NCBI GenBank assembly: GCA_000004695.1
Contig: CM000153.2
Span: forward strand, 512,001 to 576,000
DNA length: 64,000 bases
Direction of reading: 5' to 3'
DNA from: Dictyostelium discoideum
Lineage: Eukaryota
The translations under genes were made by a program, and so were the position numbers. Position 1 is the stretch's first letter; each line of letters starts with the position of its first letter. Under the pieces are notes generated by a model that worked only from the letters and a program-made list of their open reading frames with translations, was not told where the DNA came from and did no database searches. Of the stretch, positions 6,010-9,000 are shown piece after piece.

Positions 6010-9000
6010 TTAATTTAGTTTTAATTTATTATTATTATTATTAATATTAATATTATTATTATTATTATTATTATTATTATTATTATTATTATTATTATTA
6101 TTATTATTATTATTATTATTATTATTATTATTATTATTATTATTATTATTTTTTGATGAACAAGCTACATCATTGTTATTACTATTACCATCACTATTAT
6201 TAATTCTTTTATTATTATTATTATTTGATGAACAAGCTACATCATTGTTTTTATTATTACCATCATCACTATTATTATTGCTTTTATTATTATTATTTGA
6301 TGAACAAGCTACATCATCGTTATTATTATTATTTTTTGAATTAAGATTTTTTTTATTTCTATTCATAAGTTTCAATTGTTGGTCGGCCATTATATCATTT
6401 TTATTACCATTATTAACATTATTATTATTATTATTATTATTATTATTATTATTATTATTATTATTATTATTATTATTATTATTATTATTATTATTATTAT
6501 TATTTGATGAACAAGCTACATCATTGTTATTATTATTATTTTTTAATTCAAGATTTTTTTTATTTCTATTTATAAGTCTCAATTGTTGATCAGCCATTAT
6601 TTCATTGTCAAAAATATCCAAAAGAGATTTCCTATTATTCTCCAAAAAGTCTTTCCTTTCTAAATATTTGTCACCTTGGTCAGCATGTGCATTTGCATTT
6701 TCAAGTAAGGTTTCTCTTTTAATTTTCATAAAATAACGTTGTGGTACTTTAAAAAACCAAAGGACGAAACAAACAAAGCCTATAAAAAAAAGGAATCCTA
6801 GAACTGGGATAATAGTAGCCTTTTCAACTAATACAGCATTAATTTCTGATTTACCATTATCCATATTTTCATTTGTTGAAATATTTTCTAATATTAACTT
6901 AAACATAGAGCTATCAACTTTTTGATTAACTATGACTTTAATTTCAGATGTTGAGTTTATCCTTGGTAAAAAGAAACTTGATAAGGTATCATTATCGATC
7001 ATGCATGATATTTCTTTTTGAATCACCGATGATATTGTGCATCTTGTTTCATCATCAATTAAGAGTATTGTTTCGCTTGTGAAAAAATTGAAACCAAATA
7101 TTGAAACTGCCCAGTGGTCCCTTTGATAGTTATTGATTGCACTAATGTTGGTTATTGTTGGTCCAATGAATGTGATATTAAAAGGAATCGTTTGATTCAA
7201 TGATTTTGCTGTACATAGTTTATCATGAGGGCCTTTGAACCAATCACTGGTTTTGACATCACATGAAAAAGAGGAATAGTTTAAATATTTACAACCAAAA
7301 TTATGTCCATCACAATCAAGAGAAACATGGTGTTCAGAATGAAAATTTTCACCAGATATAAATGCTGTACCACCATCATGATTGAAAGGTGCAGATGTTG
7401 TATTCTTAATGGTAGGTTGAACGGTGAATGTAAATGGATCAGAAAAAATACCACAACAGCTAACCCTAATTGAAACACTAGTTAAAAATGGTTCCTTTTT
7501 AGTTGTTATTTCATTGGAGTTTATACTTATTGGAGTCATTATTTGATCTGAAATTGTTATAGTAGTTTTGTCATAAAAGCCTTGATTGTTAAATTCACCA
7601 GTACAAATAATTAATTCATTCAATACTGAGCATGATTTAATTATAGGTTCTTTATAATTATATGTTGACATGAGTGATTTACCACCATATTTAATCTTGT
7701 AATCTTTTGTGCCACAGCCCACACCAATATAAAATAAATAATCTAAATCATTTGAAAAATTTTGATTAATTTTTCCTATTGATTTAATTTCTTCATTTGA
7801 GTCTGAGTAAAATGATAACACTGGGTTTTCTAAATTATTTCCAGCACTTGTATTATATAATTTAACAATGCAATAAGATCCATTTACAAGTGGTTGAGTA
7901 ACAAACTTTGCCATGAATGATAATCCAATAAATATACTATTTGATTTGCTTTCGTATGATTTTATCGACAAATTAACATAATTCAATGTTTTTGGTATGG
8001 TGAATGACATGATTGTTTCTTGGTCATTAATTTTAACATTATTAAAATTAGAAGGAACTCCATCATTATAAATAGTAAAAGAGTCTTCTTTACCAAAACA
8101 AAGTCAAAAATTCATTAGAAATACTGTATGATGAAATGTATGGTCTGTCATAGTTGAAATATAGATTGTTAATGTTGGAGATACCATCAACATTCAATGT
8201 TACTAATGAGTTGCTTTCTAAATTAGCATTGTCAATTAAATTACAAGTTATTTTTTTTGGAGATAGAGTTAAAATTGAGCATTTGGATTTTCCTATTTTT
8301 ACCTCTGCCTTGACCTGAGATGAGTTTGAGGTTAATCTCTCTCCAATGATTGTAATTATAGCATTTTTATTTCTTGGAATACTATTTATATAGTTTAATA
8401 CTGGAGGATATATTAATTTCTTTTTGTTTGATGGTACTTTACACACTAATAATTGGATTTCAAAAGATGAACAATAAACATCTGAATAATAGTTGTAAAA
8501 TTCAATCAATTCATGATCATTTGAAATTATTAAACTGTTATTAATTGTTGTGTTCTCTACTAAAATTTCAATTGGAAATGGTTCAATACAGAAATTGGTT
8601 CCAATTAATACCACCTTTGTTCCTTGTATTTCAACTCTTTCGATATATGGATTCTGATAGGATGTATTGTAAGAAAATGAAAAAAAATTCATTTTAAAAT
8701 TGCCACACCCTACTGGGGTCATCATTGAAAAATCAGAACTATTTTTTGTTTTTTGAAATAGTTCTATTTCAATTTTACAATAATCCGATTTCACAAGTGG
8801 TGTGAGATTCAATAAAAATAAAAGATATGTGATATTTGTGTTGAATATACCACCTCTTGTAGATGGTTTTATATCTGGTTCAAAAATAGGTGGAAAACCT
8901 ATAGTATAAAATTGAGAAAAAGCTGAGCTCTCATTTAATCCAATATTTAAAGTTTCATATAAATTATATTTTAAATTGAAATCTGAGGCTAAGTTACAAA

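Follow-up and report, generated by a model that had tools for sequence, protein, structure and literature searches.

TgrB1, which is paired with TgrC1, is an allorecognition receptor of Dictyostelium that signals through its intracellular domain; this domain is reported to be nearly invariant and carries a phosphosite at S845, and L846F is an activating mutation (PMC11088635). The tgr loci of strain AX4 comprise 38 genes and 26 pseudogenes (64 loci), arranged in duplicated clusters and head-to-head pairs, with birth-and-death evolution and low expression (10.1101/2025.08.01.668227; 10.1101/2025.10.22.684067). The head-to-head layout is typical of the family, though not universal (10.1101/2025.10.22.684067), and one clade, 'AHIO', is expanding rapidly and contains many partial copies (10.1101/2025.08.01.668227). 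In this study, we analysed a repeat array that encodes four copies of the hexapeptide DVACSS in the C-terminal tail of a minus-strand tgr gene of D. discoideum AX4. The gene lies in a stretch of 64,000 nucleotides (nt) (assembly GCA_000004695.1, contig CM000153.2, positions 512,001 to 576,000 of the forward strand), which we refer to as the window and whose own coordinates are used throughout. The array is probably an ordinary coding minisatellite that arose by slippage in the tail of a tgr gene with a recent frameshift, and it multiplies a motif that is specific to a subfamily and was probably once constrained.

We compared the locus with the described systems that it most resembles. It shares with the Tgr family, in particular with tgrH/tgrI-type pairs of the AHIO clade, a signal peptide, an IPT/TIG domain, a single transmembrane (TM) segment and a head-to-head partner across 844 bp, and it belongs to a group in which duplication, rearrangement and pseudogenisation of copies are widespread. 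It differs from the family in that the window copy is frameshifted and its tail matched only two protein clusters among 1.84 billion representative proteins. As in the TgrB1/TgrC1 pair, a tailed TM protein and a tgr partner that stops at its TM segment are encoded divergently, whereas the tail of the window gene evolves fast (ratio of non-synonymous to synonymous substitution rates, dN/dS, of at least 0.5) and is expanded by repeats. The array resembles the polyasparagine (polyN) and polyglutamine (polyQ) coding repeats of Dictyostelium, in whose genome simple repeats make up 11% according to a published figure, and the adhesin repeats of yeast FLO/ALS proteins. All of these consist of in-frame, head-to-tail units bounded by simple repeats, with a copy number that is changed by slippage or unequal exchange. 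Unlike these repeats, the window array lies in a cytoplasmic tail and not in an ectodomain, and it carries a hexapeptide that is not of low complexity and is common to a diverged paralog. Receptor chains with several immunoreceptor tyrosine-based activation motifs (ITAMs) are an example of reiterated tail signalling motifs. The likeness to such tails is one of analogy only, a short motif being repeated within a disordered cytoplasmic tail; the sequences are unrelated, and the window copies are recent DNA duplicates in a broken gene. We know of no function for the approximately 60 tgr genes save TgrB1/TgrC1, nor of an account of how tgr tails signal.

Structure of the DVACSS repeat array

We examined the array at the nucleotide level. 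The results showed that the 19-mer GATGAACAAGCTACATCAT (plus strand) occurred exactly four times, at 6155, 6227, 6299 and 6506, and not once in 100 dinucleotide-preserving shuffles. An earlier sequence-only reading had described a nested tandem repeat with four DVACSS copies at this place; both its description and its coordinates were borne out, with a 207-nt unit present twice and a 72-nt unit present three times. The 26-mer quoted in that reading was exact in three copies and had one mismatch in the copy at 6298-6315 (AAC GAT for AAC AAT). Tandem Repeats Finder (TRF) reported a period of 207 nt in 1.9 copies (82% matches, score 552) as the top array of a window that is rich in simple and minisatellite repeats (81 TRF rows). 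On the minus strand, the first long unit (IMADQQLRLINRNKKNLELK-N6-DVACSS-polyN) spans 6394-6600, and the second (IMADQQLKLMNRNKKNLNSK-N5D-DVACSS... in the same 207-nt register) spans 6187-6393 and holds the 72-nt sub-repeats. The first DVACSS copy lies at 6505-6522, and the last three are spaced by exactly 72 nt: the second (6298-6315) opens the 72-nt unit 6315-6244, the third (6226-6243) opens the unit 6243-6172, and the fourth (6154-6171) precedes the last polyN run and the stop codon at 6012-6010. In the minus-strand open reading frame (ORF) 8010-6010, DVACSS starts at amino acids (aa) 497, 566, 590 and 614 and IMADQQL at aa 471 and 540, and the tail reads ...IMADQQLRLINRNKKNLELKNNNNNNDVACSS-(N)30-...IMADQQLKLMNRNKKNLNSKNNNNNDDVACSS-NNNNKSNNNSDDGNNKNN-DVACSS-NNNNNKRINNSDGNSNNN-DVACSS-K(N)n. 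Six-frame translation of the whole window revealed no DVACSS outside the array. A plus-strand ORF at 6173-6589 (138 aa, MLLLL...FDEQATS..., with FDEQATS repeated) was rejected as a gene, being the antisense mirror of the AAT-rich tail.

All four hexapeptides were encoded by GAT GTA GCT TGT TCA TCA, and 22-41 nt around each pair of copies were identical. Because the codons agree at every synonymous site, the sameness of the four copies reflects duplication and not selection. Over their unique part, the two long units matched at 104 of 114 nt, the 10 differences being 2 synonymous and 8 non-synonymous, and the two complete 72-nt units were 4 substitutions and two 3-nt indels apart. The unit boundaries all fell within AAT runs of the same phase, and the periods of 207 and 72 nt correspond to 69 and 24 codons. 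Since same-phase AAT runs give in-frame duplications automatically, the in-frame periods are no argument for selection. The array has the properties of a coding minisatellite: head-to-tail units, identity at synonymous sites, simple-repeat boundaries and a copy number that differs among relatives.

From this anatomy we infer that (AAT)n tracts of the same phase mispaired by strand slippage or took part in unequal exchange. A 207-nt block consisting of the helix-like segment IMADQQL...K, polyN and DVACSS would have been duplicated once, and a 72-nt block (DVACSS plus an N-rich linker) would have been raised to three copies, the reading frame being kept automatically because trinucleotide repeats of a single phase flank the blocks. 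The hexapeptide itself would be inherited, D[VL]A[CS]SS being a tail motif that belongs to a very small subfamily of tgr genes and that related genes already hold in two copies. An 11-nt deletion upstream of the TM segment breaks the AX4 gene, and the array would now be evolving neutrally as part of the birth and death of family members. In-frame duplication of the islands between trinucleotide tracts in Dictyostelium coding regions is already known, as are the birth, rearrangement and decay of tgr copies, and the locus illustrates both. It also teaches that repeats with the same peptide sequence call for a look at their codons before they are taken as conserved.

A frameshift upstream of the tail

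We compared the window gene with the loci of three related proteins, P0001, P0002 and P0031 (L001-L003, P0031 being that of L003), which are paralogous or rearranged copies and not alleles. DNA comparison showed an 11-nt, frameshifting deletion at 8098-8101 on the minus strand of the window, which removes the conserved YGQ of ...LTLYGQCFGKEDSF... and lies upstream of the TM segment and the tail. The window reads GACTTTG/TTTTGG at this site, and L001 reads GACTTTGTATGGCCAATGTTTTGG, that is, GACTTTG-TATGGCCAATG-TTTTGG. All three relatives carry the stretch deleted in the window, and YGQC was read at the deletion point in P0001, P0002 and the L003 ORF. The original frame, which continues through exon 2 (8090-9132), closes at a premature TAA (8092-8090). 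A long downstream ORF in another frame (6010-8103, open for 697 codons) encodes the remaining ectodomain, the TM segment and the tail, and tblastn detected homology to L001-L003 along its whole length. An uninterrupted frame from signal peptide through TM segment to tail was thus not found in the AX4 copy. Rescue by splicing was considered and rejected: the GT at 8093 combined with the downstream AGs gives introns of 36 or 77 nt that run into stops or the wrong frame, and such introns would excise sequence that is coding in the paralogs.

Splicing of exons 9263-9200 and 9132-8090 yields a 368-aa product that was found verbatim in UniParc as UPI00004E2D19 by exact look-up. This truncated protein is the only product on record, and it is recorded in UniParc only. 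The raw ORFs of the tgr gene had no exact match in the protein collection, and no AX4 protein covering the downstream ORF was found among 5.8 billion clusters by a search that did retrieve relatives with 62% and 86% identity. Because the frameshift lies upstream of the TM segment and only the truncated product is on record, the AX4 copy is probably a pseudogene, most likely one that no longer yields a membrane protein with this tail. The lesion limits the sequence-only reading, in which the repeats lay in the cytoplasmic tail of a Tgr-like protein.

The tail motif in related copies

A full HMMER search with the TM segment and tail as query, run against the 1.84 billion representative proteins, matched only P0001 and P0031, two copies from the same subfamily. 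At E ≤ 1e-3, the tail resembled no further Tgr protein in this set, in which the presence of TgrB1 is unverified. The sequence-only reading had proposed a search for the motif in other Tgr tails; in this set, the motif had no match beyond the subfamily. A word-indexed protein search with the polyN-collapsed tail gave no match at E ≤ 10 and was uninformative, the same type of search having missed P0001; the same applies to a word-indexed search with an alignment of four tail sequences, which gave no match at E ≤ 1 and failed to recover P0001 although it was in the alignment. We found no literature on DVACSS, the sole text match being an optical character recognition artefact, and accession numbers likewise led to no publication.

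The related loci carried the motif in different states, with four copies in the window, two in L002, two in L003 and one truncated copy in L001. L001, from D. cf. discoideum, is 81% identical to the window in DNA, and its tail has one IMGD unit and ends in ...NSNGNSNNNDV*; the homology to the window breaks off inside the motif and is followed by a Dcp2-like gene fragment and then a beta-adaptin fragment. L002, from a D. discoideum strain assembly (GCA_054859385.1), is the relative closest in DNA identity. Its tail (...LLDIFDNQIMADQHQLTIMNNKKILESQNNNNNKNNNDVASSSNNNSNSNNNDVASSS...) contains DVASSS twice, 45 nt apart, with TCT (Ser) in both copies where AX4 has TGT (Cys). This copy has an inverted internal segment and frame changes, and it was rejected as an allele of the window locus because its neighbouring genes are different and its distance from the syntenic position is approximately 590 kb. 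We also observed that L002 11340-11753, an ectodomain piece equivalent to window 7202-7501 (94% identity), is inverted within the copy.

L003 comes from the same strain as L002 and lies on a 6.2-kb contig that ends in large-subunit ribosomal DNA (rDNA); the contig may be an rDNA or chromosome-end junction. Its tail, ...FLDMFDNIIMAEDISRIPNNNNLRKRNSKNKNNNNNNNDLACSSINNNNCNSNSNSNSNNKIDTISDVACSSNNNKINNNNNR*, contains DLACSS (GAT TTA GCT TGT TCA TCA) and DVACSS (GAT GTT GCT TGC TCA TCA). The tail is only 38-45% identical to that of the window, yet the hexapeptide is kept at 5/6 and 6/6 residues. The paralog with these motifs occupies L003 3442-6202, and a gene for large-subunit rRNA (Rfam RF02543, 1733 bits) lies approximately 1.1 kb away.

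The presence of DLACSS and DVACSS with synonymous codon differences in a diverged paralog argues that the motif D[VL]A[CS]SS is older than the AX4 array, and it agrees with the earlier view that the hexapeptide is not random low complexity. The motif was probably once constrained in intact ancestors, and tails with two copies may represent the older condition. TGT in all four AX4 copies and TCT in both L002 copies are variants of each lineage's own, which points to independent recent amplification or homogenisation within each array. The description of DVACSS as a conserved Cys motif therefore stands only in part: the peptide, including the cysteine, is kept in L003 (TGT and TGC), but the residue is Ser in both L002 copies, and the AX4 copies are identical by duplication. 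Frame changes, deletions or an inversion were needed in all three relatives, a damaged state that fits the published tally of 26 pseudogenes among 64 AX4 tgr loci and the abundance of partial copies in the AHIO clade. Flanked by pieces of genes that adjoin the window pair, the copies in L001 and L002 appear to be scattered and decayed segmental duplicates of a locus of this kind.

We then considered constraint and structure in the tail. The TM segment ATIIPVLGFLFFIGFVCFVLWFF (aa 398-420 of ORF 8010-6010; 6751-6819, minus strand) forms a helix in the AlphaFold2 model with a predicted local distance difference test score (pLDDT) of about 90. The repeats lie C-terminal to this single hydrophobic segment in a protein with a signal-like N-terminal exon, so that the cytoplasmic location proposed for them is correct as far as topology can be judged from the sequence and from this helix. 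Next to the membrane, a tail block common to the four related copies (KVPQRYF...LLDIFDNEIMAD; 6589-6750, minus strand) showed pairwise dN/dS of 0.53-1.39 over 56 codons among the related copies. Between the window and L002 (6589-6750 against L002 11707-12474), the same block had 1 synonymous and 30 non-synonymous changes (dN/dS approximately 7, in a small sample), an excess that could be due to diversifying selection or mosaic gene conversion. On these values, strong purifying selection does not act on the tail as a whole. The single-sequence AlphaFold model had low overall confidence (mean pLDDT 56). In it, the TM helix runs on as a long helix through ...NLELK (pLDDT 62-79), and every DVACSS lies in coil at pLDDT below 50, that is, in predicted disorder.

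The motif cysteines are situated 76, 145, 169 and 193 residues past the TM segment, and such distances from the membrane are atypical for acylation of TM proteins. Palmitoylation, which the sequence-only reading had favoured together with docking, gains no positive support from this, the cysteines being remote from the TM segment, in predicted disorder and replaced by Ser in one relative. The two serines of the motif are invariant in all copies. Docking or phosphorylation would be the most interesting remaining reading, though every copy seen sits in a damaged gene, and the retention of 6/6 and 5/6 residues in the diverged tail comes from a comparison of three relatives only, all of them damaged.

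Several points weigh against slippage in a decaying gene as the full account of the array and speak for D[VL]ACSS as a functional linear motif of the cytoplasmic tail (S-acylated, docking or phospho-dependent), in which reiteration would provide multivalency and the AX4 frameshift would be a recent or strain-specific loss. The second L003 copy differs from the AX4 motif by synonymous changes only, and since this paralog keeps the peptide through such changes, the motif may still matter. None of the 14 inter-unit substitutions in AX4 falls in the 18-nt core, for which a uniform expectation gives P of approximately 0.17 x 0.29 = 0.05; this sparing of the core is a weak hint of constraint. The lesion appears to be recent because the downstream frame has remained free of stops over 697 codons in DNA of 78% A+T (window G+C 22%), where by our calculation approximately 9% of random codons are expected to be stops; intact alleles with a functional tail may exist in other strains, and the pseudogene status of the AX4 copy was itself deduced from sequence. 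At least two motif copies occur in each of three related genes, a predicted disordered tail is the usual setting for linear motifs, and signalling by TgrB1 runs through an intracellular domain that is conserved and bears a phosphosite (PMC11088635). We nevertheless regard a functional motif as rather unlikely. The replacement of Cys by Ser in both L002 copies and the distance of the cysteines from the membrane argue against it, as do the dN/dS of approximately 0.5-1.4 or higher in the remaining tail, the frameshifted, truncated or rearranged state of each copy found, and the lack of matches beyond a tiny subfamily and of literature. In its fullest form, D[VL]ACSS would be a new linear motif of tgrH-like tails, serving S-acylation or phospho-dependent docking on the adjacent serines, with copy number tuning the valency of signalling and AX4 carrying a recently disabled allele; we judge this quite improbable. 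If true, (AAT)n-mediated slippage would readily alter the motif number in intact alleles of natural populations, and a conserved, reiterated tail motif would offer a handle for mutagenesis in an intact paralog.

The nucleotide identity of the four cores could also be read as a sign that the repeated 19-26-nt core works as a DNA or RNA element, for instance by binding a protein, folding into a small hairpin or signalling recombination, and the core does hold a 5-bp inverted repeat (TGATG...CATCA). However, the predicted hairpin has little stability (-2.5 kcal/mol, z = -1.1; 34 of 200 shuffled sequences folded equally well or better), no Rfam family was matched at E ≤ 1, and the core occurs nowhere else in the 64-kb window. 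L003 keeps the peptide with different nucleotides, which indicates conservation at the protein level, and a nucleic acid element is in our view extremely improbable. A reference error in this repetitive, A+T-rich region, affecting either the repeat copy number or the frameshift, would be conceivable, since (AAT)n runs of at least 90 nt occur here and are hard to assemble, and published work stresses the short-read mis-calling of tgr paralogs. Against such an error, the units differ by point substitutions and 3-nt indels, unlike a collapsed or duplicated read pile-up, and the 11-nt deletion lies in complex sequence with 2-nt microhomology and is not a homopolymer miscount. Two independent annotation sets (EAL.. 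and KAM99.., which share the neighbouring proteins) give no protein for the downstream ORF, and an assembly artefact is very improbable.

Gene pair and neighbouring features

The minus-strand gene has the architecture of the Tgr family, with a signal peptide-like N-terminus, a TIG domain, a single TM segment and a C-terminal tail. Exon 1 (9200-9263, minus strand) contains the start codon (ATG at 9263) and the signal-peptide-like sequence MKRLVFLITFYLVSIVYSKTS; its N-terminus, MKRLVFLITFYLVSIVYS, was read as hydrophobic from the sequence. Intron 1 (9133-9199, GTATGT...AAG, 67 nt) is supported by the exact database match of the spliced product, and exon 2 encodes the ectodomain with the IPT/TIG domain (Pfam TIG, E = 4e-7). 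Compared with the neighbouring Ig_TgrO1-type copy in L002, the gene showed 28% identity across 718 aa (E = 1e-44). The head-to-head partner lies on the plus strand at 10108-12733 (exons 10108-10183 and 10257-12733) and contains Ig_TgrO1 (Pfam, 3e-31) and TIG domains; its spliced product is identical to XP_639162.1/Q54R85 and ends at a TM segment without a tail. A divergent intergenic region of 844 bp separates ATG 9263 (minus) from ATG 10108 (plus). With its TIG domain, signal sequence, single TM segment and head-to-head partner, the gene is a member of the Tgr family, as the sequence-only reading had recognised.

Among the other ORFs of the window are DDB_G0283373, DDB_G0283355 and a U5 small nuclear ribonucleoprotein (snRNP) subunit, which are identical to AX4 proteins or fall inside their 90%-identity clusters and thereby place the window on chromosome 4 of AX4. 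The identifiers of tgrH1 (DDB_G0283323), tgrI1 (DDB_G0283335) and tgrI2 (DDB_G0283317) are close to those of these window genes, and the exon lengths are 3366 nt for tgrH1 and 2568 nt each for tgrI1 and tgrI2. Because the identifiers adjoin, we named the pair tgrH-like/tgrI-like; it is probably such a pair of the AHIO clade, as judged from identifiers and gene length.

The intergenic region (9264-10107) contains a 62-nt direct repeat in three copies (9759, 9829 and 9969; 73-81% identity) and a 34-nt repeat at 9567 and 9708. Such direct repeats between two tgr genes could be shared promoter elements. On the other side of the probable tgr pseudogene, a gene for a Dcp2-like NUDIX protein at 3744-5800 is convergent with it and ends 210 nt from the tgr stop; a beta-adaptin gene occupies approximately 12980-15810. 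Fragments of this gene (window 3831-5248) also flank related tgr copies, at L001 8202-9390 and L002 13320-13679, and in L001 a piece of the gene for beta-adaptin (window 12983-14256) is present as well. The C-terminal half of the Dcp2-like protein (4604-5800) contains long polyQ and (QQQH)n tracts, with ACA x52 on the plus strand at 5392-5547. A heptamer array of AGAAAAT x18 (99% matches) at 3620-3745 finishes exactly at the ATG of ORF 3744-4301, which we would guess to be the first exon of the adjacent Dcp2-like gene.

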